This document shows positions 21,251 to 35,834 of a stretch of 64,000 nucleotides of DNA, one piece after another. Below the pieces are notes generated by a model that saw nothing but the letters and a program-made list of their open reading frames with translations, had not been told where the DNA came from and made no database searches. The DNA lies in NCBI GenBank assembly GCA_049719805.1, contig JBNARF010000002.1, positions 275,495-339,494 of the forward strand, read 5' to 3'. The stretch's first letter is position 1. Each line of letters begins with the position of its first letter. The DNA is from Candidatus Hydrothermia bacterium. GTDB taxonomy: Bacteria > Hydrothermota > Hydrothermia > UBA1063. The position numbers and the translations under genes are program-made.

Positions 21251-23050
21251 ATGTTTAAGACAAGTGGACCAGATTTCAAAAAAATTAAGCTCGAAGCCCA
21301 AAAGCTCATTGGGCAGGGTAAATATCAGGAAGCGTTAAATAAGTTAATAGAACTAAGCAAGCAGATCAGCGACCCAGAAGTTTACAATTCTATTGGCGAC
21401 CTCTATATCAGGTTCCAGAATAATGAGCAAGCCCTTCAATATCTCGAAAAAGCATACAAAATCTACAGAGAGCAGGATTTCAGAGAGATAGCTATTTCTG
21501 TGGCTAAGAAAATTCTTCGTATCGAAAAGGATAGGCATGATATTTACATTGATTTGGTTGAAATGGAAATGGAGAACGGTAATGTGGATAAAGCCCTTGA
21601 TTGGGCATTGGAGTTTGTAAAGCTACCTAACCCTGATCCTAGCTATGTGGGTAAGCTTTTTAGATTATTAAATGATATAGCTAATGAAATTCAGGAGAAT
21701 ACAGAACAGGCGACAAAATTCGAGAGACTCTTCATTAAATTGCAAGAGCTTGCGGAGCAGCTCTCTTTAGCTACCCTTGAGTCAGGAATTGAAATTGCGG
21801 ATGCAAAGGAATTTTTTGATAAAGGAGATTTTGAAGAATACGGTGGATTTTTTGATGCGGGTCACCCAGCTGAAGAAGCGAAGATTAAGAAAACCACCAG
21901 AAAGAAGGAAGAGCAAGAACCTGTTGAAAAGATAGAATTTTTTGAACAAGAAGAGGAAGAGAAAAGTTTTATAACTGCTTCTGGATTTTCCAATTTTCTT
22001 GAAGTGGAGAAATCTGATAATATTGAAAAAACCGTTCTGGAAGAGAAACCTACATCTTCTCATAAGTCAGAAGAAAGTGTGAAATTCGAGATTTCTGAGA
22101 AAACTGAGTTTGTAGAAGAAACTGAAGAAAAATTGGATTTGTTACCCCCTGAATCCAAGAGCGTCTCGGATAAGAGGCCGCCATCTGAGCAGTTTAAAAC
22201 AGTTTTAGAGGAAGAGCTTCCAGAGGAAATCGAGGCAGAACAAAAGGTATGGGAATCATTGACATCAAAAAAAATCACCGAACAGAAGCCGGTTCCTGAA
22301 GTAACAAGCAGTAAAGAATCTTCAGCTGAAGAGGAGGAACCTGAAAAACTCAGGGTGGCTTTTGACGAGTATGTGAAACTGAAAGAAGAGGAGAAAAAAG
22401 TCACTTTTGATGAGGTTGTAAGCGAGAAATTTAAGAGTGAATCAAAGGAAGAACCGAAACTGGAGCAAAAACCGACTGAGGGGGGAGTTCTCGAAAAAGT
22501 TGTAAAAGAGTCAACAACTGAGAAATTCTCCAAGGAGTTTAAGTCTTCCGTTTTTCAGGAAAAAGAAGCAGCACCCGCTGTAGTGCAGAAACCTAGAGAA
22601 TTTAGTGAAGCTATGTCAGATTTACTAAAGATTATAAGAGATTTCAAAGAAGATCTTGTTGGTTTAGAGACGTGGCCTTACTCTTCCGATTCTCCCTTTG
22701 AAGTTGCAAAAGAATATTACGAAATGAAGCTCTATCAGCCAGCAGTCGAAGAATTCCAGAAGCTTCTAGGAGACCCCAGATACAGGCTTCAATCAATGAC
22801 TTATTTAGGAAAGATATTCTATGAAAGGGGTGAGTTAGATTTTGCCGAGGCAATACTCAGGAAGGCTATCGAAGAAGCTGGATATATGGAGAAGGAATCC
22901 ATTGAGGCTTACTATTATCTTGCCCTAACCCTTGAGGCGCTTAAGCGTTTTATGGAAGCAAAAGAATTATATTTGAGGGTGTATATATTCGATTCAAGTT
23001 TTAGGGATGTTGCTGCAAAAGTAATGACATTAAGGAGTAAAGCACTATGA
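21251..23050 (+). CDS. Hypothetical protein: TPR-like helical termini flanking a long acidic/Lys-rich low-complexity region
   Basis: 599 aa; TPR-like N- and C-terminal segments, central ~300 aa rich in E/K/S/T; stop overlaps the next gene's start (ATGA). Confidence 0.45.
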   Translation: MFKTSGPDFKKIKLEAQKLIGQGKYQEALNKLIELSKQISDPEVYNSIGDLYIRFQNNEQALQYLEKAYKIYREQDFREIAISVAKKILRIEKDRHDIYIDLVEMEMENGNVDKALDWALEFVKLPNPDPSYVGKLFRLLNDIANEIQENTEQATKFERLFIKLQELAEQLSLATLESGIEIADAKEFFDKGDFEEYGGFFDAGHPAEEAKIKKTTRKKEEQEPVEKIEFFEQEEEEKSFITASGFSNFLEVEKSDNIEKTVLEEKPTSSHKSEESVKFEISEKTEFVEETEEKLDLLPPESKSVSDKRPPSEQFKTVLEEELPEEIEAEQKVWESLTSKKITEQKPVPEVTSSKESSAEEEEPEKLRVAFDEYVKLKEEEKKVTFDEVVSEKFKSESKEEPKLEQKPTEGGVLEKVVKESTTEKFSKEFKSSVFQEKEAAPAVVQKPREFSEAMSDLLKIIRDFKEDLVGLETWPYSSDSPFEVAKEYYEMKLYQPAVEEFQKLLGDPRYRLQSMTYLGKIFYERGELDFAEAILRKAIEEAGYMEKESIEAYYYLALTLEALKRFMEAKELYLRVYIFDSSFRDVAAKVMTLRSKAL

Positions 23051-24288
23051 TGAAGAAGGATTTAAAAGTTGAAGAAAAACCTCAAGGTAAGGTTACCTTC
23101 GTGGAGCTTCTTGAAAAGAGCGGCATCATTTCCAAAGAGGCCATTAAAGCTGCCCTTGCTGAGCAATGGGAGAGAGGGGGAACTTTAGAAGAGATTCTCG
23201 TTGAAAAGGGATACTTAAACGAGGAACAATTTGTTAAATTTATACTTGATAAATTTCCTATGCTACATTATGTGAGCTTGAAAGATATAGATATTGATAC
23301 TGAAGCTGTTGAACATATCCCAGCCAGAATTGCTAAGAAGTACTTACTGATCCCGGTTAGAAAGAAGGGGAAATCCTTAGCTGTGACCATGGCAAATCCC
23401 TTAAATAAAGAAATGCTCATCGAACTGAAAAACGTTACAGATTTGAAAATTAGACCATTTGTTTCAAAGATTTCGGAGATAAAGGAAGCCATTGCTAAGT
23501 ATTACGGAGAGATTGGAGAAGCAGAGGAAATTCCAGAACCTTTCACTGCAGATAAAGTTAAGAAAGAGATTGGAGTCCTGATAGCAAAGGATAAAACCTT
23601 TGAAAATTTCGTGGTCGGGGAAACTAATAAGCATGCCTATTTGCTTTGCGCAGATATTGCAAAAACTCGAGGAGTTGGAGAGAAGCGGCTTTTCATATGG
23701 GGGCCAGAAGGTACGGGGAAAACTCATCTTCTTCAAGCTATTGCGAACTACCTTTTAGAGAATGAAGCTCTAAGGAGATTCATATACATTGATGCTATAA
23801 AGTTTGTTACAACCCTGAAGGGTTTTAAGTCAGAGCGCGAGGTGGATCGGTATTTAAAAATTCTTACAGATCTTGATTTACTTCTCTTTGATGACTTAGA
23901 CTTTCTAATAGGTAAGGATTATGCTCAAGAGGCTTTATTTTCAGTGCTTTCTGAATTAAGAATGACCGATAAACAAGTGGTAATATCCTCATCATATCCG
24001 ATGAAGGATATGCCTACTTTGAGCGTAAAAGTAAAATCTTTAATTTCTGAATTCCTTGTAGTTGGAATGGATGAGCCCTCCGTGGAGCTTAAAAGGGACA
24101 TTGTAAAAAGATTTTTGCAGGAAGAATCACTTCCCTCTGGTGTAGTTGAGTTTCTTGTAAAGAAGCCTGGTTTAACAGTTAAAAAGATTGAATCTATTGT
24201 TCGCACATTGCTCACTTACAAGAGGATAGGAGAGAAAATTGATGAAAATCTTTTAAATAAGGTGGTTTCAGGGATTATTGAAAGTTAA
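23047..24288 (+). CDS. Fusion protein: N-terminal GspE-N (T2SSE_N/MshEN-like) domain + DnaA/Hda-like AAA+ ATPase domain, no DnaA domain IV
   Basis: 413 aa; residues ~15-155 match the GspE/PilB N-terminal domain pattern; residues ~180-400 match DnaA domain III: FVVGETNKHAY, Walker A WGPEGTGKTHLL, Walker B LLLFDDLDFL. Confidence 0.6.
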   Translation: MMKKDLKVEEKPQGKVTFVELLEKSGIISKEAIKAALAEQWERGGTLEEILVEKGYLNEEQFVKFILDKFPMLHYVSLKDIDIDTEAVEHIPARIAKKYLLIPVRKKGKSLAVTMANPLNKEMLIELKNVTDLKIRPFVSKISEIKEAIAKYYGEIGEAEEIPEPFTADKVKKEIGVLIAKDKTFENFVVGETNKHAYLLCADIAKTRGVGEKRLFIWGPEGTGKTHLLQAIANYLLENEALRRFIYIDAIKFVTTLKGFKSEREVDRYLKILTDLDLLLFDDLDFLIGKDYAQEALFSVLSELRMTDKQVVISSSYPMKDMPTLSVKVKSLISEFLVVGMDEPSVELKRDIVKRFLQEESLPSGVVEFLVKKPGLTVKKIESIVRTLLTYKRIGEKIDENLLNKVVSGIIES

Positions 24289-24302: not shown

Positions 24303-25922
24303 ATGGCTTTGTTAGGTCAACTGGGTTTGGGAGCTAAGGGCAAAACGAAAGGGAGCATAGTAGCCCTTGATATAGGTTCAAAATATGTAAAAGCTGCGTT
24401 ATTTGAGAGAAGGAAGAACGAGTTAGTGTTTAGGGGACTAGCTGTGGAAAAGGTCCCACCCGATGTGATCCTGGGTAAAGATATAATCGACCGGCAGGTT
24501 CTGGTAGATAAGATAAGGGATGCTTACTCCAAGCTTGGCACTGAAGTTAGAGATGTGGTGGTGAACGTAGCCGGTGGTGAGGTGAAAACTAAGGCCTTCG
24601 TTATACCTGACCTAAAGAAAAAAGAAAAGATAGCGGAGGCAGTGGACTGGAAGATAAAGGATGAGTTGCACGTGGATCCTACCGAGATAGTCAGGGATTA
24701 CGAACTTCTTGGAAAAAGCGAAGTGAGTGAGTCTCTGGATATGCTTGTGGGTACTGCCAAGTTGAGTGTGGTTTATGATATCATGGATATTGTGAGGGCT
24801 GCAAGACTTGAGCCTATAATGGTTACAACCGATCTCCTGGCCCTTTGGAGAGTTATTGAGGCCCTCGATTTAAAAGACCTTCCTGGAGATAACGTATTTT
24901 TCCATCTGGGTTACGAAGTGGGACTCCTAATTCATGTTAAAGATGGCAAGATCCAACAGATGATCGAAGTCCCAGCGGGTTTAAAATCATATGTGGATAA
25001 CTTATCCAGATTCTTTGACCTAAGAGTAGAAGAGGCCGAAGAAATTGTTATAAATGGCCCTACTTCCGGTATTGATAAAGTTTCTTTTGATGAGACTGTT
25101 GATTCGCTCCATGAGAGGTTTCTTTCGCCTGAAAAATATATACCTTTACTTGGTGAGCCAGGTGTTAAATTTAATTTATACATCTCTGGTGGTGGAAGTA
25201 AATTATACGGTGTAAGTGCTTTTGTTAAGAATAAGTATGGTGTCGATCTTAAATTCATAGATGTCTCAACCTTGTTTGCAGTTGAAGAACCTGTAAAGGG
25301 TATCAAAGATTATTTAAACTTACTAACTATAGTAATTGGTGATGCACTTCATTATTTCAGGAAAGGGCACAAGATAAACTTAATGCCTCAAGAAGCAGGG
25401 ATGGAAGCAGTAGCGGTTGAGGGTGAGGTTTCTTTATTACCTCATGTGGTGGGGGCACTCTCAATATGGCTTGTAATTGTCATTGTAATTGCTGTGCTGT
25501 CCATCGGAACCTCAAGGAGGATTTCAGGGCTTAAGAATCAAATAGCCAGGTTACAGGCTGAAGAGGTGGAACTTCAGAGAAAAGCTGACGAAATCAGGGG
25601 ATTTAAACAAGAAATTGAAGACGCCAGGCGAAAATTGGATCTTATTCAGCAGCTTCAAATGGGTAGAACGGTTTATGTAAGACTTCTCGATGAAATAAAC
25701 AGGGTTCTTCCCTCCGGGTGCTGGCTCGAGTCTGTAAGAAAAAGTGGTAGTTATCTTAATGTTTCTGGAGGAGCCCTTTCAAATATTAGAATATCTCAAT
25801 TTATGTCTAATCTCAAAAAGTCAGATGTAGTTGATTCTGTATACCTCCAGTCCATTGAAGTCTCTGGGGGTAGTCAACAAGAAAGATATGCAAGGTTTGA
25901 AATTAATGTTAAACTGAAATAA
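24303..25922 (+). CDS. pilM: Type IV pilus assembly protein PilM fused to PilN-like TM/coiled-coil/periplasmic region
   Basis: 539 aa; actin-like PilM N-terminus (IVALDIGSKYVKAA), then TM helix (ALSIWLVIVIVIAVLSIG), coiled coil and periplasmic domain as in PilN. Confidence 0.65.
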   Translation: MALLGQLGLGAKGKTKGSIVALDIGSKYVKAALFERRKNELVFRGLAVEKVPPDVILGKDIIDRQVLVDKIRDAYSKLGTEVRDVVVNVAGGEVKTKAFVIPDLKKKEKIAEAVDWKIKDELHVDPTEIVRDYELLGKSEVSESLDMLVGTAKLSVVYDIMDIVRAARLEPIMVTTDLLALWRVIEALDLKDLPGDNVFFHLGYEVGLLIHVKDGKIQQMIEVPAGLKSYVDNLSRFFDLRVEEAEEIVINGPTSGIDKVSFDETVDSLHERFLSPEKYIPLLGEPGVKFNLYISGGGSKLYGVSAFVKNKYGVDLKFIDVSTLFAVEEPVKGIKDYLNLLTIVIGDALHYFRKGHKINLMPQEAGMEAVAVEGEVSLLPHVVGALSIWLVIVIVIAVLSIGTSRRISGLKNQIARLQAEEVELQRKADEIRGFKQEIEDARRKLDLIQQLQMGRTVYVRLLDEINRVLPSGCWLESVRKSGSYLNVSGGALSNIRISQFMSNLKKSDVVDSVYLQSIEVSGGSQQERYARFEINVKLK

Positions 25923-25935
25923 AGGAGGTTTAATT

Positions 25936-26385
25936 ATGAAGAGGTATTTTTACCTTATAATTGCAGTAGTCCTTGGTCTTGTGCTTTCATCCTGTGAAAA
26001 GGTGGATAAAGACGCTACACTGACAGGTCGGGTAGGGTATGCCATTGCGTATATCGATACGGTTCATCAGGAAACCACCTTTGTTTTTCAAAATGCAGCG
26101 GGTGCAAGGGTTTATTTAATGGGTGATGATGCTTCACCTAATCCTTATACAGGTCCGGTACTTGAAACCACTACTGATTCCACCGGAACTTATCAGTTTG
26201 TCGTAAATGCTGTGACTGAGCCCAGTACCTCTTTTATCCCTACTAACAATTTTGGGATTAAGATTCAGGTGTTCTACTTTGATAATATAATTGGCCCAGC
26301 CTATGGAGAACTTAGCGGATATCACTTTACGCCCGGGAAAGACGCCACACTTCCAATAATATATCTTAAGCGGCAAACTCAGTAG
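25936..26385 (+). CDS. Small lipoprotein, beta-sandwich-like (carboxypeptidase-regulatory-like); unknown function
   Basis: 149 aa; signal peptide with lipobox LVLSSC; TGTYQF-type motif; AGGAGG RBS; sits between pilMN and pilO. Confidence 0.5.
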   Translation: MKRYFYLIIAVVLGLVLSSCEKVDKDATLTGRVGYAIAYIDTVHQETTFVFQNAAGARVYLMGDDASPNPYTGPVLETTTDSTGTYQFVVNAVTEPSTSFIPTNNFGIKIQVFYFDNIIGPAYGELSGYHFTPGKDATLPIIYLKRQTQ

Positions 26386-26394
26386 GAGTGAAAA

Positions 26395-26985
26395 ATGGAA
26401 AAATTAAAATCTCCGGCAGTAATATGGCTTTTAGGAGTAATTATATACGTATTGACCTTTATGTTCCTCTGGAATTCCATGTATGCCTCCAAATCCAGGG
26501 AACTCAAGACAGTAGAAGCAAAATATAAGGAGCAATACTCTAGAGTTCAGAATCTTCGTGAATTTGTAAAGGATTATGATAGAATAATAAGAGAAAAGGA
26601 CTCTTTGCTTGCCCTGTGGGAGGAGACTCAGAGGTTTTTGCCTCAGGAAGAAAATATGGACACATGGCTTTCTCAGATTACTGGTATGGCCATTAGTTCA
26701 GGGGTTCAAATATACAGTTTTAAGCCACAGTCACCCAGACAGCAGGAATTATATCGAGAGTATCCCATTGTGATGAAGGTAAGGGGTGGCTTCCATGAGC
26801 TTGGTACATTTATAAGCTTTATAGCCAACTCAGAGAGGATAATGAGTGTGGAGAATCTTCAACTACAACGTGTATCAGGACAAGAAATAGAGAGTGGACA
26901 AACGGTTGATGCTGAATTGACGGTTATATGTTATGTTTATAGTCCAGTGCAGGGGGCCGGAAAACCATCGGGAGGTTCACGATGA
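26395..26985 (+). CDS. pilO: Type IV pilus assembly protein PilO-like
   Basis: 196 aa; N-terminal TM helix, coiled coil, periplasmic domain; position between pilMN and pilP/pilQ. Confidence 0.55.
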   Translation: MEKLKSPAVIWLLGVIIYVLTFMFLWNSMYASKSRELKTVEAKYKEQYSRVQNLREFVKDYDRIIREKDSLLALWEETQRFLPQEENMDTWLSQITGMAISSGVQIYSFKPQSPRQQELYREYPIVMKVRGGFHELGTFISFIANSERIMSVENLQLQRVSGQEIESGQTVDAELTVICYVYSPVQGAGKPSGGSR

Positions 26986-27770
26986 GAAAAATTGTATTTT
27001 TTAATTTTTTATTTATTACATTATTGCTTAGCACTTTGCGAGCCCAGAATATGATAACTTCTTATTCTGTTCAAGAATCCGATGAAGGAGTTAGCATTAT
27101 TCTCGAGTTCTCTGAAGGGGTACCTCAGTATAGAGATTTTACCCTTGCAAATCCTCCCAGGATAGTGGTAGATTTGATTAACGTGGGGTATTCCTTAGGG
27201 GGAAAGCTTTTCGTAGTGGGAAAAGGTGGAGTGGAGCGAATAAGAGGAGCTCAGTACCAGAGAGAGCCGGAACTTGTTGCAAGAATTGTTCTTGATGTAG
27301 ATGAGTTTAGAAGCTACTCCATAGTAACATCGGAGAAATCCCTTATAATAAAAGTAGGTGGTATATCCAGCGTACCCTATTCCTCTTCTGCGCCAGGCGA
27401 AGCTGCTCCAGCACCTACCGAGAAAACCACTACAGTAAAAACTGAAGAAAAACAATACAAATTGGAAGTTGGGGAGAAGTACTTCTATTCTTCAAGGGGT
27501 AAAAAAGACCCCTTTAAGCCAGAAGCATTTGGTGAAGAGGAAGAACTTTTAAATGTTAGCGAGGCAAAACTCCTTGGGATTATAAAAAGCGATGAAGGAA
27601 ATGTAGCCCTTCTTCAGGATAGAAGGGGAGTAGGCTACGTTTTGAAAGAAGGAGACAGGGTCAGAAACGGTCGGGTAGTAAAGATTGAATCCGACCGTGT
27701 AGTTTTCGCTATTGTAGATTTTGGTTTTACAAGAAGGGTTGAATTAAAATTGGAGGAAGAAAATAAATAA
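26982..27770 (+). CDS. Secreted AMIN-domain protein with C-terminal PilP-like domain
   Basis: 262 aa; signal peptide; AMIN-like motifs (PPRIVVDLINV, ARIVLDVDE); Pro/Ala/Thr linker; C-terminal KDPFKP...LLGII...VKIESDRVVF resembles PilP. Confidence 0.5.
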   Translation: MRKIVFFNFLFITLLLSTLRAQNMITSYSVQESDEGVSIILEFSEGVPQYRDFTLANPPRIVVDLINVGYSLGGKLFVVGKGGVERIRGAQYQREPELVARIVLDVDEFRSYSIVTSEKSLIIKVGGISSVPYSSSAPGEAAPAPTEKTTTVKTEEKQYKLEVGEKYFYSSRGKKDPFKPEAFGEEEELLNVSEAKLLGIIKSDEGNVALLQDRRGVGYVLKEGDRVRNGRVVKIESDRVVFAIVDFGFTRRVELKLEEENK

Positions 27771-27784
27771 AAGGAGGTTTAGTA

Positions 27785-28969
27785 ATGGGGATTTTTAGAA
27801 AAGCGCTTCTTATCCTGCTTACGGTGAGTGTAATATCTGCTCAAGAAGCCCGAATCACCATGAGTGTAGAACAGGCAGATATAAAAACCGTATTGAGAGC
27901 CTTTGCAGAAGTTGGGAGAGTTAATATAATTACAACACCGTCCGTAACTCAGAAAGTTACTTTTAACATAAAAGATGTACCCTGGAGACTGGCTCTAAAA
28001 TCCTTGCTTGATGCCTATGGGCTTGCAATGATTGAAAGTGAGGGACTCATCACCATTATGACTCAACAGGAGTTTGCAAACTTAAAAACAGCAGCGGACC
28101 TGGATATTAAAGTACTTAAAGTACGTTATGCCGATGCCCGAAAAGTTGCAGAGGTCTTAAAGTCGCAGTTATCTCCAAGAGGAGATATTAAGTTGGATGA
28201 AAGCTCTAACGCCCTTATTGTCACGGATCTCAGAGTAAACCTGTACAGAGTGGAGGATCTCCTCACCCAGGTAGATAAGCCTTACCCCCAGGTTATGATA
28301 AAAGGAAGAATAGTGGAAGTGGACTACAATGAGTCAAGAAGGCTTGGGTCAGAGCTTAAAGCAATTAGGTTTGGAAATCCCGGTTTCGAAGCCTCACCCT
28401 ATACTGCTGGAGGACTTGAACCTGAAAACGCAACTTATTTAACGGTGAATTATCTCGGACCTAATGCTGCAAGAATTGAGGCAGCTATTGATGCTCTTGA
28501 GGGCAAATCAAAAGCCAATACCATTTCTGAGCCTAAAATCATGGTCCTTGACAATGAAAAGGCATCTATATATTCGAAGATAAGGGTGCCGGTTATTTCA
28601 AGGGATATGGCCGGAAATACTGTCGTTCAGTTTGAAGAAACCGGTATAAGCCTTGAAGTAACACCTCATATTATTCCAGATGGCAAAGTGGTTCTACACA
28701 TTAAAACAGAGACTGGGGACCTCACCGGATATTCTGCTGCTGGTCAACCAATAACCTCCAAGAGAGGAGCAGAGACGAAGGTTACAGTACCTGATGGAGA
28801 AACTGTATTAATTGGTGGTGTTATCATTGACAAGGATAAGAAAGCTAATTCAGGCCTTCCTTTGCTTTTGAGAATCCCCATTTTAGGCCAGATTTTTGGT
28901 CGTCATTCTGTAGAAAAAAGTAAGGCTGAGATTTTGATATTCTTAACACCCACTGTGGTGAGAGAATGA
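27785..28969 (+). CDS. pilQ: Type IV pilus secretin PilQ (minimal form)
   Basis: 394 aa; signal peptide, secretin N-domains, C-terminal secretin signature (GETVLIGGVI...PLLLRIPILGQIFG...ILIFLTPTVV). Confidence 0.85.
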   Translation: MGIFRKALLILLTVSVISAQEARITMSVEQADIKTVLRAFAEVGRVNIITTPSVTQKVTFNIKDVPWRLALKSLLDAYGLAMIESEGLITIMTQQEFANLKTAADLDIKVLKVRYADARKVAEVLKSQLSPRGDIKLDESSNALIVTDLRVNLYRVEDLLTQVDKPYPQVMIKGRIVEVDYNESRRLGSELKAIRFGNPGFEASPYTAGGLEPENATYLTVNYLGPNAARIEAAIDALEGKSKANTISEPKIMVLDNEKASIYSKIRVPVISRDMAGNTVVQFEETGISLEVTPHIIPDGKVVLHIKTETGDLTGYSAAGQPITSKRGAETKVTVPDGETVLIGGVIIDKDKKANSGLPLLLRIPILGQIFGRHSVEKSKAEILIFLTPTVVRE

Positions 28970-29526
28970 AAATAAGATTTTTCAATCACAAGAAGGGCCT
29001 CACATTAGTTGAGGTCCTTCTTGTGATTTTTATTATCAGTATCTTAGTAGCAATACCTTTCTGGGGGGGGACTCAATATATAGCCCGCAACAGGCTAAGA
29101 AGTGAAGCGGTTAAGATTAAATCCTTTACCGAAAACGAGAGAACCAATGCTATGGCCATGACCACAAGACGTGCCATAGAGTTCAATGGGTGGGATGTAA
29201 CAATTTACGTGGAAGATCTATCGCGCCCTTTGCCTAATCTGGATTCTATTGTTGCCACTTACCCCAATTACTTTAGCTCTAAAATAAATTTCGGCGGGCT
29301 TCCGGGTGCGACGGCTCTAAGGGGAGGTTCCATTGACTCCGATGGTGTAATGTTTGGGAGTTCTCAGAATAATAACAGGTTGGTCTTCACAGCCTTTGGA
29401 CTTGTTGAGAATCCCGGAGAGCTATATATAAATGATGGACGAAATCTAATGTGTATCGCTGTTAACGGATTTGGACAAGTTAGAATATATAGATGGACAG
29501 GGGGAAGCTGGAATGAAGTTAAATAA
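28966..29526 (+). CDS. Prepilin-type minor pilin/pseudopilin (FimU/GspH-like)
   Basis: 186 aa; class III signal peptide KKG/LTLVEVLLVIFIISILVAI with Glu at +5. Confidence 0.65.
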   Translation: MKIRFFNHKKGLTLVEVLLVIFIISILVAIPFWGGTQYIARNRLRSEAVKIKSFTENERTNAMAMTTRRAIEFNGWDVTIYVEDLSRPLPNLDSIVATYPNYFSSKINFGGLPGATALRGGSIDSDGVMFGSSQNNNRLVFTAFGLVENPGELYINDGRNLMCIAVNGFGQVRIYRWTGGSWNEVK

Positions 29527-29935
29527 AAAAGGTTTTTCTCTTATTGAGCTTCTCGTGGCTCTTTCTATACTGGCTATTGGACTCCTCGGTATAATTCCCC
29601 TTGCTATCACCACTATACGCCTCAATACCTATCAGAATCAAATGCTTAATGCTAAGTATTTAGCAGAGAGGCAGGCGGAATTTTTAAGAAGTATTACGTT
29701 TACTGCACCTGAACTCGCAAATGATAACGACAACAATGACCTATACGATACCGCAAACCCTGACCACATTCTTGCTACAACCATTGAAGGGATCACATAT
29801 AATGTGATGTGGAACATTGTGGATGATTCTGCCGGGACTAGAACTATTAATATAATAGTTCAGTGGGTTACGCCACGAACTGGAGAAACAAAAAACTATA
29901 ATATTACCCTCGTAAGGAGTAGCTATGAAATTTAG
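29513..29935 (+). CDS. Prepilin-type minor pilin (PilV-like)
   Basis: Prepilin motif KKG/FSLIELLVALSILAIGLLG; chosen start ATG 29513 (MKLNKKGF...), ORF track starts at 29471; overlaps upstream gene by 14 nt. Confidence 0.65.
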   Translation: MKLNKKGFSLIELLVALSILAIGLLGIIPLAITTIRLNTYQNQMLNAKYLAERQAEFLRSITFTAPELANDNDNNDLYDTANPDHILATTIEGITYNVMWNIVDDSAGTRTINIIVQWVTPRTGETKNYNITLVRSSYEI

Positions 29936-30827
29936 AAGAGCTATAACACTCTTGGAACTTATTGTGGCTTTGGGCATATTATCTGTGCTTCTTACTAGTG
30001 TTTTTATAGTATATAGAAATCAAATGAGGACAGCCACCACTCAGCAAAGTATTTCCGTTCTCCAGACTGATATTCAGCAGGCTTTTAACATTCAAAAGTG
30101 GGATATGCTGATGAGCGGGTATGGTGTTAGTGCAAATGTTGCTCCCATATGGAGCATAAATAAGACAAATGCCCCTGATTCTTTAATATTACGGAGCACG
30201 GGTTTTCTTATTGGTGGTACCACCCGCTGGAGTTACGTTATGGATGCAATGACGGGGACTGAACTTATCGTTGGGCGCTGGAATGACGAAAGGGAAGATA
30301 TTCATGTTGGTGACGTGATTGTAATAATGACTGATAGAAAGGGTCAGATAGCTCCACCTGTTTCTGTCACAGCTCGCGAGGCGATGACTTATAACAATCA
30401 GGATGCGTACAGGCTGACCTTAAGTGGGAATGTTCAAACGGCTCAGGGTAACTTTGTCTTTGTGGTTCCTGGAGGTCAATTTCAAACTGTAGTTTATTGG
30501 GTTAGAAATGACACGCTGTTTCGGGGGAATGAGCCCTTTTTAACGGGAGTTGAAGATTTTCAGGTATCTCACTGGGTGGACTTAAATGGCAATGGGATAG
30601 AGGATGTGGGGGAGAGGGTTATGAATCCTTCTGGTGTAAGTAATTTTACGGGTTTCTTAAGGTCTACAAGGGTTAGTCTTGTGCTTTTAGGTCCTGTGGA
30701 TAGAGATTATACATTCCCTGATAATCAAATTACTGTGGAAGATCATACCTATACAATTACCGGGTCTGCGAGGAATAGAAGGCGCAGGTTTTATACCATA
30801 GAAGTAAAAGCGAGGAATATAAGATGA
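29925..30827 (+). CDS. Prepilin-type minor pilin (PilW-like), atypical Ala at -1
   Basis: 300 aa; N-terminus MKFRRA/ITLLELIVALGILSVLL with Glu at +5 but Ala instead of Gly before the cleavage site. Confidence 0.55.
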   Translation: MKFRRAITLLELIVALGILSVLLTSVFIVYRNQMRTATTQQSISVLQTDIQQAFNIQKWDMLMSGYGVSANVAPIWSINKTNAPDSLILRSTGFLIGGTTRWSYVMDAMTGTELIVGRWNDEREDIHVGDVIVIMTDRKGQIAPPVSVTAREAMTYNNQDAYRLTLSGNVQTAQGNFVFVVPGGQFQTVVYWVRNDTLFRGNEPFLTGVEDFQVSHWVDLNGNGIEDVGERVMNPSGVSNFTGFLRSTRVSLVLLGPVDRDYTFPDNQITVEDHTYTITGSARNRRRRFYTIEVKARNIR

Positions 30828-31273
30828 AAAAAGGAGTTGCTTTAATAACGGTGATTCTCGTAGTTGCGTTTCTTGTGGTTTTAGGTGGAATAACAGCCTA
30901 CATGGTCCAGAGAAGTTTGAGAATTACCGGGACCTTCAGAAGGGCTCTATCCACCTTTGAGGCTGCGGAAGGTGGTATTGAGATAGGTGTGAATGAGATA
31001 TGGTCTGCTTCAGAAGAAGGAAGATCACTGGGAACGATAACGAGGAACGTAGGACAAAGGTCAGTAACTGTAACACCATCTCGTCTTTTTGTGATGACGG
31101 AAAGGGGTGGCTCATTAGAGTTTGCTGCGGCATACGAAGGTGTTGGAAGGGGAGTAGGAGGGGGTGGTGCTGCAATATTTTATAGAATCTTATCTTTATC
31201 CCGCGGTGGACCTGAAGATAGGGTGGAACTTGAAGTTTTATATAGGAAAGTTGTAGGTATAATAGCACAATAA
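30824..31273 (+). CDS. PilX-like minor pilin / pilus assembly protein
   Basis: 149 aa; N-terminal hydrophobic helix (GVALITVILVVAFLVVLGGITAY) lacking Glu5, as in PilX. Confidence 0.5.
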   Translation: MKKGVALITVILVVAFLVVLGGITAYMVQRSLRITGTFRRALSTFEAAEGGIEIGVNEIWSASEEGRSLGTITRNVGQRSVTVTPSRLFVMTERGGSLEFAAAYEGVGRGVGGGGAAIFYRILSLSRGGPEDRVELEVLYRKVVGIIAQ

Positions 31274-31284
31274 AAGGAAAAGGG

Positions 31285-34200
31285 GTGATAATTATGTTTA
31301 AAAAAAGGTGGTTATTTGGTACATTAATGATTATAGTGGGGGCACTCATGGCTCAAACCACTGAGATGCCCTGCAACGTTCCGCCGTTTTTGGCGGAGAA
31401 AATTCCGCCGAATATCTTAGTTATTATGGACAATTCTGGTTCTATGGGTGAAATGGCATATAATGAGCCTTATAACCCTAACAAAAAATACTATGGCTAT
31501 TTTAATCCCGATGCAGTTTATCGTTATGACAACAATGAATGGGTTCCTGTAGATCAAAGTGCAAACTTTAATACCACCTGGCCTGGAAACCTCTTGAACT
31601 GGGCAATTATGTCACGTTTCAGTGTTTTAAAGAAAGTTCTTGTGGGTGGAAAGGCAACGGCACGAAGCCCCAGGGGATTTGCCCACACCCTGATTTGTGA
31701 GTCACGCAATTCCTGGGATAAATATTACACATATGGCGGAAGTAAATACCGTTTTACCGTTTCCGGTGGAAGTGCTGGATCTGCGAGTAGTATAGTAATA
31801 AGGAGATGGACAGGAAGGAATTGGGTGCAACTGCTTTCTGCAACTAATAAAGTTGCAATCGACTCAACCTTCTCCCGAGGTGTTATTCAGAAGCTTGGTG
31901 ATAAGGATATAGATGGCAGATGGGATGATGACACTCCGAGATTCTGGCTAATAATGTTTAATAGCAGAGGGAATAACAGTGAAATGGGGTCAGGTAGTAC
32001 AACCCCAGTAAATGTCAGCGGGGAACACGATGGCGGTCGTGTGGAGTCTTATTATCAGGATAACAATTCAATGAGTGATTTTGTTAATGCCATTCAGAAT
32101 GCCAAAGCAGAGACCTGGACCCCCCTCGCTGAATGTTTACTTGAGACATGCTGGTATTTTAGACAAGTTCCCACACCTCTTTTCTTCCCTAATGACTACG
32201 GGACGGACCGGCAATGGGATCCTATGGAGCCTAAGAGTGTATGGTGCCGAAAGTCTTTTGTGCTCTTTTTGACCGACGGCCAGGCAACGAGAGATAGAGA
32301 TCCCGTTTTGCATCAGCATATAGGTGATTACGATGGTGACGGAATGGAACCATCGTTTTATCAGGGTGTAGATGATCCACAGTTCAGCAGCCATTACCTT
32401 GATGATGTAGCCTTTTGGATGCATACCAACGATCTGAGACCTGATATCCCGGGGACCCAGAACCTCACCCTTTATGGTGTCTTTGTTTTTGGATATGGGC
32501 ACGATCTTTTAAAAGAAGCCTGTAAAGATGGCGGATTCATCGATTACAATGGTAACAATAGACCTGACCTTACGAGAGAGTGGGATCATAATGAAGACGG
32601 AGTTCCCGATACATATTTCGAGGCACAGGAGGGAGAGCAGATCGAAAAGGCTATTATGGATGCGATACTCTCTATTTTAGCGAGGGTAAGTTCAGCTACG
32701 GCTGCATCTGTGGTCACTCAGACCCAGAGAGGTGAAGGAACTATATATCAGGCCTTTTTCCAGCCCACTTACACTACGCCTCTGGGCGAGATAAAATGGC
32801 TTGGACAATTGGTGGGCTACTTTGTTGATAAAAATGGAAATATTAGAGAAGATAGCAATAATGATTTAAGACTCACTAGTGATGACCGTATTTTGAAATT
32901 TAAGACTGAAGGAATTGAAACCAGAGTTGAGAGATGGGCTGCCACTTCTGATGATAATCCCCTTTACAAGGTTGATGAAGTAGACCTCTGGGATGTTAAT
33001 TTCCTCTGGGATGCTGGCAAAAGATTACTGGAAAGAAGCGCTGACGAGCGGATTATAAAAGCAATAATTAAACAGAATAACACATTTGCTCTCATAGATT
33101 TCAAAACCAATAACAGGAGCCTTCTCAGCTCTTACATGGAAGGTTCTGATGCCTTCAAGGACTCTTTAATAAATTACATTAGAGGTGTTGATTATAATAA
33201 TCCCAGCTGGCGATCCAGGACATTTGAGCCGAATAAGGTCTGGAAACTTGGTGATATAGTCTACTCTACGCCGACTTTTGTTGGAAGACCGACGGAAAGG
33301 TATGATCTCATATATGATGATGTATCTTACAGGGAATTTTACAACCGGAAGAAGAACAGGCGAAACATAGTCCTTGTTGGCGCCAACGATGGAATGCTCC
33401 ATGCGTTTAATGCCGGTATTTTTGATACACTTGAAAGAAGGGTAGATGGAATGGGTAGGAGTTTGGGTGAAGAATTGTGGGCAGTTATTCCTATGAACCT
33501 CCTTCCCCATTTGAAATGGCTGAAGGATCAGCAATATTGCCATGTTTACTATGTTGACCTTAAACCAAAAGTTACAGACGTAAAGATATTTAGTGATGAT
33601 GAGGATCATCCTGAAGGCTGGGGTACTGTCGCCATCGTAGGAATGAGATTTGGAGGAACTCCAATATCCATATCCAGTGGCACGTATAGGTCTGCTTTCT
33701 TTGCTCTTGACATTTCTAACCCAGATAATCCCCGGGTGTTGTGGGAGTTTACAGATCCCAATCTTGGTTATACTATTTCCTATCCCTCTGTTTTGAAAGT
33801 TGTGGATCAGAACGGTGAAAAGTGGTTCGTTGTTTTTGGTTCTGGAACCACAACTACCCCCACAGGACACACTTCCAATCAAAATGCTTATTTCTATATC
33901 CTTGATCTTAAGACGGGAGCCCTTTTAAGAAAGATACAGATACCATATCCTTCAAATCAGACGCAAGGTGCGTTTTGTGGTAATCCCATCTCCGTGGACG
34001 TTAAGCTGGATTACAGTTGTGATATAATCTATTTACCTGTTACATATATTGAAAGATCAGGTAATACAAATATAGAAAAGGGTGCTCTTTACAGGATAGT
34101 AACTGGCAATAGTACAAATCCGCAAGCCTGGTCCCTCTCCATGGCGATAAGACTAGATAGGCCAGTAACCTCAGGGACTGCCGCTTCCATGGACGAATAT

Positions 34201-34857
34201 GGTAATTTATGGGTATTCTTTGGGAGCGGGAAGTACTTTACAGACCAGGATGAGATTGATTCAAGGACCAATTATCTTCTAGGATTTAAGGATCAGTACT
34301 GGAATGGTGGTTGGACAAGTGCTACCTCTCCAAGCTATGCCCTTTCAGATCTTCTCAATGCAACTAATATTAATGTAAGAGTTGACACTTCCACTGGCAG
34401 TGCCACTGTTGAAAACGTACAAGGCCTTCCAAATAATTTATCTTTCGAAGCCTTTGTGGATTCTGTTAATAGAAGATATAAGGGGTGGTATGTGGAGCTC
34501 CAGAGTGGTGAAAAGTCCCTTAATTTCCCATTAGTTCTTGGCGGTGCTGTATTTTTCACCACCTATAAGGTTATTGATGACCCTTGTGCTTTTGGTGGTC
34601 AGGGATGGCTCTATGTACTCTATTACAAGACTGGAACAGCATCTAAAAATGCGCCCCTGGGTTTACTACAGAACAATTACGCTGCCACCAAGGTTGAAGT
34701 ACAGGGTATGCCTGCTTCTCCTGCAGTTCACATAGGATCAAGGGATGAGGCAAGGGCGGTGGTTCAGACCTCAACTGGCGAGATTATTTCCATGCCCGTG
34801 GAACTTCCCTGGAGTCCGAAGAGCGGTGCAAGGGTCTGGAGACCCGCAAACTTTTAA
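31285..34857 (+). CDS. PilY1/PilC-like pilus tip adhesin with N-terminal vWA (MIDAS) domain
   Basis: 1190 aa; signal peptide; MIDAS motif VIMDNSGSM near the N-terminus; large C-terminal region consistent with a PilY1 beta-propeller; follows four minor pilin genes. Confidence 0.65.
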   Translation: MIIMFKKRWLFGTLMIIVGALMAQTTEMPCNVPPFLAEKIPPNILVIMDNSGSMGEMAYNEPYNPNKKYYGYFNPDAVYRYDNNEWVPVDQSANFNTTWPGNLLNWAIMSRFSVLKKVLVGGKATARSPRGFAHTLICESRNSWDKYYTYGGSKYRFTVSGGSAGSASSIVIRRWTGRNWVQLLSATNKVAIDSTFSRGVIQKLGDKDIDGRWDDDTPRFWLIMFNSRGNNSEMGSGSTTPVNVSGEHDGGRVESYYQDNNSMSDFVNAIQNAKAETWTPLAECLLETCWYFRQVPTPLFFPNDYGTDRQWDPMEPKSVWCRKSFVLFLTDGQATRDRDPVLHQHIGDYDGDGMEPSFYQGVDDPQFSSHYLDDVAFWMHTNDLRPDIPGTQNLTLYGVFVFGYGHDLLKEACKDGGFIDYNGNNRPDLTREWDHNEDGVPDTYFEAQEGEQIEKAIMDAILSILARVSSATAASVVTQTQRGEGTIYQAFFQPTYTTPLGEIKWLGQLVGYFVDKNGNIREDSNNDLRLTSDDRILKFKTEGIETRVERWAATSDDNPLYKVDEVDLWDVNFLWDAGKRLLERSADERIIKAIIKQNNTFALIDFKTNNRSLLSSYMEGSDAFKDSLINYIRGVDYNNPSWRSRTFEPNKVWKLGDIVYSTPTFVGRPTERYDLIYDDVSYREFYNRKKNRRNIVLVGANDGMLHAFNAGIFDTLERRVDGMGRSLGEELWAVIPMNLLPHLKWLKDQQYCHVYYVDLKPKVTDVKIFSDDEDHPEGWGTVAIVGMRFGGTPISISSGTYRSAFFALDISNPDNPRVLWEFTDPNLGYTISYPSVLKVVDQNGEKWFVVFGSGTTTTPTGHTSNQNAYFYILDLKTGALLRKIQIPYPSNQTQGAFCGNPISVDVKLDYSCDIIYLPVTYIERSGNTNIEKGALYRIVTGNSTNPQAWSLSMAIRLDRPVTSGTAASMDEYGNLWVFFGSGKYFTDQDEIDSRTNYLLGFKDQYWNGGWTSATSPSYALSDLLNATNINVRVDTSTGSATVENVQGLPNNLSFEAFVDSVNRRYKGWYVELQSGEKSLNFPLVLGGAVFFTTYKVIDDPCAFGGQGWLYVLYYKTGTASKNAPLGLLQNNYAATKVEVQGMPASPAVHIGSRDEARAVVQTSTGEIISMPVELPWSPKSGARVWRPANF

Positions 34858-34870
34858 AAGGGGGTAGAGC

Positions 34871-35227
34871 ATGTTTGCCTTTATAATTTTAATTTCCATC
34901 TTGACTCAATCAGGGATTCAGGTGACCCAGGGGGTGATTAGTACCCCCAGGGTCCTGCAAAAAGAATATCTAACTGATGAAGAGATGAGGGCCCTTCAAA
35001 ATACCATAGGCGGAGTTTTTATGGGGGTTTCTGATGATTCAAACTACATTTTCGTGAACGAAAAATACATAAAAATCGATAAGAGAACATTCAATTTCAA
35101 GAATTTGCCTGCTGTTGGCGAGGATGTCTTTATACGATTGGAAGAACGTGGGAAGGATAAAATCGGAGTATTCTGCTCTAATAACCTGGATGATGCTGTT
35201 TATTACAAAAAGGGACTTTTTAAATGA
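34871..35227 (+). CDS. Hypothetical small secreted/membrane-anchored protein
   Basis: 118 aa; N-terminal hydrophobic segment; no recognised motif. Confidence 0.3.
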   Translation: MFAFIILISILTQSGIQVTQGVISTPRVLQKEYLTDEEMRALQNTIGGVFMGVSDDSNYIFVNEKYIKIDKRTFNFKNLPAVGEDVFIRLEERGKDKIGVFCSNNLDDAVYYKKGLFK

Positions 35228-35778
35228 AGGGGCTTCTAATTCTTCTCATCATTCTTGTAATTTTGATTGTGGTTTTCATTTCCATCTACAATAGCCTTGT
35301 AAGATTGAGGGTCCTTGTTAAAAATGCTTTTGCTGATATTGACGTGCAGCTTAAGAAAAGACATGATCTTGTGCCTAATCTTGTGGAGACCGTAAAAGGC
35401 TACGCTGCCCACGAGAGAACCACACTGGAAAACGTAATTAAAGCAAGGCAGATGGCAGTTTCAGCTTCAACTCCCGATGACAAAATGAAATCCGAAAATA
35501 TGCTCACACAAGCTTTGAGACAGCTCTTTGCAGTCGTTGAAAATTATCCCAATCTAAAGGCTAATGAGAATTTTATGGCGCTGCAACAGGAGCTTTCCAA
35601 AATAGAAGAGTCTATTCAGAATGCACGCAGGTACTACAACGCCGTAGTCCGGGATTACAATACACGAATTATGGTTTTTCCGTCCAATATTGTTGCCAGT
35701 ATGTTTGGTTTCAGACCGGAGTCATTTTTCGAGATCGGAGAAGAGACAGAAAGAGAAGCACCCCAGGTTAAGTTCTGA
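35224..35778 (+). CDS. LemA-family membrane protein
   Basis: 184 aa; N-terminal TM helix then LemA pattern (YNSLVRLRVLVKNAFADIDVQLKKRHDLVPNLVETVKGYA). Confidence 0.8.
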   Translation: MKGLLILLIILVILIVVFISIYNSLVRLRVLVKNAFADIDVQLKKRHDLVPNLVETVKGYAAHERTTLENVIKARQMAVSASTPDDKMKSENMLTQALRQLFAVVENYPNLKANENFMALQQELSKIEESIQNARRYYNAVVRDYNTRIMVFPSNIVASMFGFRPESFFEIGEETEREAPQVKF

Positions 35779-35797: not shown

Positions 35798-35834
35798 TGT
35801 GCGCGCCCCTTCGGGGCGCGCACAATTTTTATTT
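35798..35834 (+). terminator. Rho-independent terminator (possibly bidirectional)
   Basis: Perfect GC-rich hairpin TGTGCGCGCCCC-TTC-GGGGCGCGCACA (35798..35824) followed by AATTTTTATTT; lies between convergent LemA (+) and DUF192 (-) genes. Confidence 0.7.

Follow-up and report, generated by a model that had tools for sequence, protein, structure and literature searches.

A PilY1-type protein with a predicted MIDAS-bearing von Willebrand factor A domain and a C-terminal beta-propeller, encoded after four minor pilin genes in a Candidatus Hydrothermia bacterium

Which part does a very long protein encoded right behind a set of minor pilin genes play in a type IV pilus, and is it the adhesin at the pilus tip? 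This question is raised by a stretch of 64,000 nucleotides (nt) from a Candidatus Hydrothermia (WOR-3-related) bacterium (GenBank assembly GCA_049719805.1, contig JBNARF010000002.1, positions 275,495 to 339,494 of the forward strand), hereafter referred to as the window. All coordinates below are window positions, and the genes and protein features given with coordinates lie on the plus strand. The list of open reading frames (ORFs) holds an uninterrupted pilY1-type gene at 31285..34857, which yields 1190 amino acids (aa) from a GTG at 31285, and a first-pass annotation had taken its product to be the likely tip adhesin. In this study, the gene was found, very probably, to code for PilY1 of a type IVa pilus system. 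The protein consists of three parts, namely, I) a signal-peptide-like N-terminus followed by a von Willebrand factor A (vWA) domain with an adhesion site dependent on metal ions (MIDAS) and inserted arms; II) a beta-rich and helical connector; and III) a PilY1 propeller. Database sources name the relatives of the protein 'PilC/PilY family type IV pilus protein' or 'type IV pilus assembly protein PilY1'.

The family assignment is carried by the C-terminal half, which is, as judged from sequence and model, a PilY1-type beta-propeller (aa ~646-1172; 33220..34800), as had been proposed. Pfam family PF05567 (T4P_PilY1) matches aa 655-1011 with E = 1.2e-20 and 74.2 bits, compared with a gathering cut-off of 28.1. 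In PDB sequence searches, the C-terminal domain of Pseudomonas aeruginosa PilY1 (3hx6) came first, with E = 6e-24 for the single sequence and E = 1.6e-50 for a family profile of 94 homologues, and it is the only solved sequence relative of the protein. Besides 3hx6, the profile recovered only designed 'Cake' propellers, via a 16-residue blade motif (aa 691-706), a match that is uninformative on the N-terminal domain. A full-length AlphaFold2 model built from the homologue alignment had a predicted local distance difference test score (pLDDT) of 90.4 and a predicted template modelling score (pTM) of 0.80, and a Foldseek search with the full model again ranked 3hx6 first (E = 2.9e-23, template modelling score 0.69 normalised on 3hx6), with generic propellers far behind. 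The Neisseria PilC equivalog model of NCBIfam, NF040838, matches only aa 824-1101 (E = 2e-11); an identity as Neisseria PilC was rejected, as its 42.7 bits lie far under the cut-off of 350.

The N-terminal region is, by model and alignment, a vWA domain of Rossmann-like alpha/beta fold with a complete and conserved MIDAS site (aa ~40-470, including large insertions; 31402..32694). The first MIDAS loop, D49-N-S51-G-S53 (31429..31443; aa 49-53 within VIMDNSGSMGEM, aa 46-57), directly follows strand beta1 (aa 43-48), and a beta-rich arm is inserted into the domain after this loop (aa ~60-195; 31462..31869). The MIDAS threonine, T279 in W-T-P-L-A-E (32119..32121), stands before the helix of residues 281-292, and the MIDAS aspartate, D331 in T-D-G (32275..32277), stands after the strand of residues 324-330. 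In the secondary structure of the model, these residues thus occupy the loops expected for a vWA domain, namely those behind beta1 and beta4 and the one ahead of the helix that comes after alpha3. A bare DxSxS is expected 0.45 times per shuffled sequence of the same composition, which is not beyond chance, and the motif was therefore weighed by its conservation and structural context. Both make DNSGS meaningful, since it is near-invariant in the 94 homologues (D49 in 92, S51 in 90, and S53 in 88) and directly follows the first vWA beta-strand. The threonine is kept in 89/94 homologues, the aspartate in 93/94, and the adjacent G332 in all 94. Tip or surface adhesins from three other types of pilus are among the nearest structural neighbors of the N-terminal domain. 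A search with this domain alone, among 1.84 billion cluster representatives, retrieved 2021 at E <= 1e-3, most of them ~1000-1700 aa long. Precomputed annotation assigns the newer Pfam family PF28373 (PilY1_homolog_dom) to the identical GenBank protein and to almost every homologue; those that lack the first ~180 residues also lack PF28373, which suggests that this family covers the N-terminal part of the protein. Between the vWA domain and the propeller lies a middle region of long beta-hairpins followed by helices (aa ~472-640; 32698..33204), with a connector loop, D515-KNGNI-R521-E522-D523, in which the D, G, R, E, and D are invariant.

The genomic context points in the same direction as the propeller: the protein belongs to the PilY1/PilC family, judging from a family profile above its gathering score and from the core minor pilins adjoining it. 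Four minor pilin genes precede the gene, as the first-pass annotation had stated, with ends that overlap or nearly so. The first (28966..29526) is FimU/GspH-like, with an N_methyl match of 27.8 bits, above cut-off, and a weak GspH match. The second (29513..29935) is PilV/GspI-like (N_methyl, 35.8 bits; TIGR02523 PilV, 35 bits, below cut-off); the ORF list starts it at a TTG at 29471, and the ATG at 29513 gives MKLNKKGFSLIELL. The third (29925..30827) is PilW/GspJ-like (N_methyl, 22.1 bits; PF16074 PilW, 22.6 bits, just below cut-off), and in relatives the gene at the corresponding place is likewise annotated with the PilW family. The fourth (30824..31273) is PilX/GspK-like (PF14341 PilX_N, 23.2 bits, just below cut-off; weak GspK match). 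Because the PilV, PilW, and PilX scores lie just below their cut-offs, the individual names rest partly on gene order. The linkage is operon-like, with pilY1 directly after the four core minor pilins and in one tight string with pilMN-O-P-Q; twelve genes, from 24303 to 35778, form this string with a spacing of -14 to +20 nt. The order of four minor pilins, PilY1, and a small ORF recurs in two relatives, one of 45% identity (L001) and the other, a complete WOR-3 genome, of 37% identity (L003).

By analogy with P. aeruginosa and Myxococcus xanthus, the protein would be exported by Sec, after which its propeller would dock on the minor-pilin complex. PilY1 and the minor pilins may then prime pilus assembly and end at the fibre tip, with the vWA domain outermost. 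A divalent cation bound at the MIDAS could complete its coordination through an acidic or oxygen-bearing group of a ligand (a surface, a polymer, or another cell), giving metal-dependent adhesion, and pilus retraction would then load the ligand contact. The analogy draws on the vWA/MIDAS, tip position, and adhesion force described for P. aeruginosa PilY1 (PMC8806160), on a review of PilY1/minor-pilin priming, tip complexes, and calcium motifs (PMC13190605), and on the vWA module of Streptococcus sanguinis PilB, which is described as acting in adhesion (bioRxiv 10.1101/2021.01.27.428410).

Several observations weigh against an adhesive tip PilY1 of this kind. The first concern the vWA domain: no Pfam VWA family matched, whether the full protein (E <= 0.1) or aa 26-652 (E <= 1) was scanned, and a Foldseek search with the N-terminal model gave no significant match (none below E = 0.01; best E = 0.014), although the leading matches were vWA-type proteins. 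The weak Foldseek result is likely due to the ~250 residues of insertions that split the vWA core. Of what the first-pass annotation had expected here, the MIDAS-type motif about 45 residues from the N-terminus and the vWA fold are borne out by DNSGS, its conservation, and the model, and no VWA profile match accompanies them; the profile search it had suggested returned the propeller family above cut-off and no Pfam VWA family. Tsi3, the only Pfam match in the VWA scans of the protein and of its N-terminal 627 aa, was sub-threshold (E = 0.02-0.05) and was judged to be noise. Secondly, the propeller lacks the canonical calcium motif Dx(D/N)xDGxxD, with Lys at position 3 and Tyr at position 6 of the aligned loop. 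Thirdly, no major pilin, pilB, pilT, or pilC gene was found within the window, so that a complete retractile machine is not evident there. Lastly, tip location, adhesion, mechanosensing, and ligand and metal binding of the Hydrothermia protein are inferred by analogy from other organisms.

The gene content, in particular, may be read in favor of a protein that is no adhesin but mainly an assembly or priming factor, i.e., an anti-retraction factor or machine plug, of a pilus or of a pseudopilus-like secretion apparatus, in which the MIDAS would serve an internal contact (e.g., with a minor pilin or the secretin) and not an external ligand. The gene string contains a secretin and an alignment complex and has no major pilin or retraction ATPase, the minor pilins also weakly match the type II secretion pseudopilins GspH/I/K, and PilY1/PilC is needed for piliation itself in P. 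aeruginosa and Neisseria (PMC13190605). However, the adhesins found among the closest structural relatives of the N-terminal domain speak against this, as does a fully conserved MIDAS with adjacent inserted arms, which is the architecture of ligand-binding vWA adhesins; moreover, priming and adhesion are compatible in the systems studied. An assembly role without adhesion is thus considered quite unlikely.

A further reading makes the protein first and foremost a mechanosensor, one that passes surface contact on to second-messenger signaling, as has been proposed for PilY1 of P. aeruginosa PA14 via its vWA cysteines. The domain architecture is as in P. aeruginosa PilY1 (PMC8806160), the N-terminal domain holds six of the ten cysteines, among them the invariant C321, and a gene with an MshEN domain heads the pilus gene string. 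The sequence, however, offers no test of signaling, the PA14 signaling cysteines C147 and C152 are not conserved even within P. aeruginosa (PMC8806160), and the window revealed neither a Pil-Chp nor a diguanylate cyclase partner. A primarily mechanosensory function is held to be highly unlikely. Adhesion is accordingly ranked above both the assembly-only and the mechanosensory roles, neither of which excludes it.

How, then, might calcium act on a tip PilY1 whose propeller lacks the canonical motif? The EF-hand-like propeller site Dx(D/N)xDGxxD is typical of P. aeruginosa PilY1 and Neisseria PilC and is absent from many family members, and whole PilY1 clades without calcium motifs have been reported (PMC13190605); a degenerate loop is thus variation inside the family and does not affect membership. 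The calcium-binding loop that the first-pass annotation had expected in the propeller is indeed degenerate here. In the profile alignment to 3hx6, the P. aeruginosa loop D851-N-N853-S-D855-G-V-A-D859 aligns to D905-V-K907-L-D909-Y-S-C-D913 (33997..34023), in which three Asp are kept, N853 is replaced by K907, and G856 by Tyr. At loop position 3, the 94-sequence alignment shows Lys, Arg, or Met solely in the query and the 12 relatives nearest to it (>= 55% identity); the remaining sequences have Asp, Asn, or Gly there. The strict motif is found in the propeller of one of the 94 homologues and in the N-terminal part of 82, and the aligned propeller positions hold four acidic or amide ligands in 49.

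The N-terminal part of the Hydrothermia protein contains such loops as well. An EF-hand-like loop, DKDIDGRWD (aa 206-214; 31900..31926), is a clade-variable insertion present in 38/94 homologues, and two tandem EF-hand-like loops, DYNGNNRPD (aa 420-428) and DHNEDGVPD (aa 434-442), lie inside the vWA domain between the helix of residues 406-417 and the strand of residues 444-447 (32542..32610). In the tandem pair, D420 and D442 are invariant in the homologue alignment, and N422, P427, D434, and P441 are conserved in at least 90% of the homologues. The strict Dx[DN]xDGxxD is expected only 0.004 times per shuffle, so that the EF-hand-like loops are taken to be real features. The second strict calcium motif, DxDxNxxxD, was not found in the PilY1 protein, and a motif-3 string at residue 523 was given no weight, the loose pattern being expected 0.1 times per shuffle. 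The PilW-like minor pilin (29925-30827) contains, near aa 219-227, the sequence DLNGNGIED, an EF-hand-like DxNxNxxxD loop, a hint that calcium binding may extend to a tip-complex minor pilin.

Since the third ligand is Lys in this clade and conserved EF-hand-like loops are found in the vWA domain instead, the calcium switch of the Pseudomonas-type propeller is probably not operating the same way here. Going further, the switch might have been replaced in the Hydrothermia clade by a built-in positive charge, with calcium dependence moved to the adhesin head, i.e., to the EF-hand-like loops of the vWA domain at aa 420-442 and aa 206-214, a speculative suggestion that is held to be rather unlikely. 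The Lys/Arg/Met at the N853 position of the clade recalls an engineered D859K variant of Pseudomonas PilY1 that reportedly acts as a 'calcium-bound mimic'.

Comparison with known systems places P. aeruginosa PilY1 (PA4554; 3hx6), of the FimU-PilVWXY1 system, as the closest characterized protein, with the same overall plan. Both proteins have an N-terminal vWA domain with a DxSxS...T...D MIDAS and a C-terminal propeller, behind a signal peptide in P. aeruginosa and a signal-peptide-like N-terminus in Hydrothermia, both are encoded after fimU-pilVWX-type minor pilins, and their lengths are similar (~1160 vs. 1187 aa). The propellers are homologous by sequence and fold, yet their identity is only ~22%, a comparison that covers the propeller halves, as only the C-terminal domain of the P. 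aeruginosa protein is solved. Differences include the calcium loop, DNNSDGVAD in P. aeruginosa and DVKLDYSCD in Hydrothermia, the RGD integrin-binding motif, which was not found in a motif search of the Hydrothermia protein, and the fifth, pilE-like minor pilin gene, which does not follow the Hydrothermia pilY1. In M. xanthus, pilus priming and the pilus tip are the work of a complex of PilY1 and minor pilins, and in the PilY1.1-1.3 clusters, as in Hydrothermia, four minor pilins accompany a single PilY1, in some cases together with a further small accessory gene (PMC13190605). However, two of the three M. xanthus PilY1 proteins have DUF4114 N-terminal domains instead of the vWA domain of Hydrothermia, and no counterpart of the accessory TfcP, a cytochrome c, was detected here, where the downstream 118-aa ORF is without a family match.

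More distant likenesses are limited to one or the other half of the protein. The C-terminal propeller region of Neisseria PilC1/PilC2 is homologous to that of Hydrothermia PilY1, as seen from the NF040838 match, and the N-terminal domains of PilC are dissimilar to those of PilY1 (PMC11331964). In S. sanguinis PilB (7b7p), a vWA module is grafted onto a type IV pilin; the protein has an N-terminal pilin module and no propeller, whereas in the Hydrothermia protein a PilY1 propeller is fused to the vWA domain, which is preceded by what appears on inspection to be a Sec signal peptide, and the sequence identity between the two is 16%. The vWA head also resembles tip adhesins of unrelated pilus types, namely, PitA (7w6b), SpaC (6m48), RrgA (2ww8), and GBS104 (3txa) of sortase pili, and Mfa5 (6tnj) of type V pili. 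These adhesins belong to unrelated assembly pathways, lack a PilY1 propeller, and show no homology to the Hydrothermia protein beyond the vWA core.

The start of the gene calls for a small correction. The 1190-aa ORF after four minor pilins stands as an uninterrupted frame behind four genes, but the ATG at 31294 is the likelier start, giving 1187 aa, because the Shine-Dalgarno-like AAGGGGTGA lies at the proper distance 5' of it and because the GenBank model of an identical protein also begins there (1187 aa, 100% identity; 'MAG: pilus assembly protein [Candidatus Hydrothermia bacterium]', MAG being metagenome-assembled genome). From this ATG, the N-terminus looks like a Sec signal peptide and not a prepilin leader: inspection of the translation shows n-, h-, and c-regions in MFKKRWLFGTLMIIVGALMA (31294..31353), with putative cleavage before QT and no GFxxxE motif, and the model has a low-confidence helix at aa 5-23. 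A lipoprotein N-terminus was rejected, as no lipobox precedes C30. Regarding size, the protein is exceeded within the window by only two ORFs, of 1267 and 1368 aa. Their size and position fit the RNA polymerase subunits of the first-pass annotation, consistent with its ranking of the protein as the largest in the locus after these.

The remaining genes of the string are those of the alignment complex and a few small or accessory ORFs. Pfam matches, the annotation of relatives, and spacing identify, within 24303..28969, a pilM-pilN fusion, a small lipoprotein-like ORF, a gene in the PilO position, a gene in the PilP position (AMIN-like in relatives), and the secretin gene pilQ. The PilM-PilN fusion (24303-25922; 539 aa) matches PilM_2 at aa 22-251 and PilN at aa 460-538, and the same fusion, of 553 aa, occurs in L001. 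Between it and the pilO-position gene, a 149-aa ORF (25936-26385) has a lipoprotein-like N-terminus (…LVLSSC…) and no family match; its counterpart in the same place in L001 is a 172-aa ORF without a Pfam match. Downstream, 13 nt after pilY1, lies a 118-aa ORF with a hydrophobic N-terminus (34871..35227) and no Pfam or NCBIfam match, in a position that resembles that of pilY2 of P. aeruginosa. Its positional counterparts in distant relatives are of 143 and 102 aa and showed 23-26% identity in a gapped three-sequence alignment; a common family of small post-pilY1 ORFs was not accepted at this identity, and the likeness was kept as a positional observation only. The last gene of the string is of the LemA family (35224-35778) and shares 4 nt with the 3' end of the small ORF; a LemA gene also follows pilY1 in L001 and does not in L003. 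A strong bidirectional terminator-like hairpin (35798..35824; 12-base-pair stem with 10 GC pairs) closes the string after it.

Two further genes lie upstream of the alignment genes. Directly in front of pilM-pilN, a 413-aa protein (23047-24288) combines an MshEN domain (PF05157, E = 2e-16), a cyclic di-GMP-binding module, with a DnaA-type AAA+ ATPase (PF00308, E = 2e-33), and the same fusion is found in the same position in L001 (positions 1-505). This protein may regulate the pilus genes or the machine. Just upstream of it, a 599-aa protein with tetratricopeptide repeats (21251-23050) could be pilus-associated and have a PilF/Tgl-like role.

A PilY1 with a vWA/MIDAS domain and a propeller, encoded after four minor pilins, is already well described, and the exact protein has been deposited and named; the locus mainly adds that all genes for the tip complex of a type IVa pilus are present in an uncultured hot-spring or hydrothermal lineage (Candidatus Hydrothermia/WOR-3). 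The confident full-length model (pLDDT 90) has annotation value. No N-terminal PilY1 domain has been solved experimentally (PMC11331964), with which the PDB sequence search of this study agrees. As for variation of calcium control across the family, small, testable leads come from the degenerate propeller site and the conserved EF-hand-like loops of the vWA domain, and the only non-routine lead is the combination of these loops with the clade-specific cationic substitution in the propeller calcium loop. If the built-in charge were indeed to have taken the place of the propeller switch, a large PilY1 subfamily would regulate adhesion by calcium, and not pilus extension and retraction.

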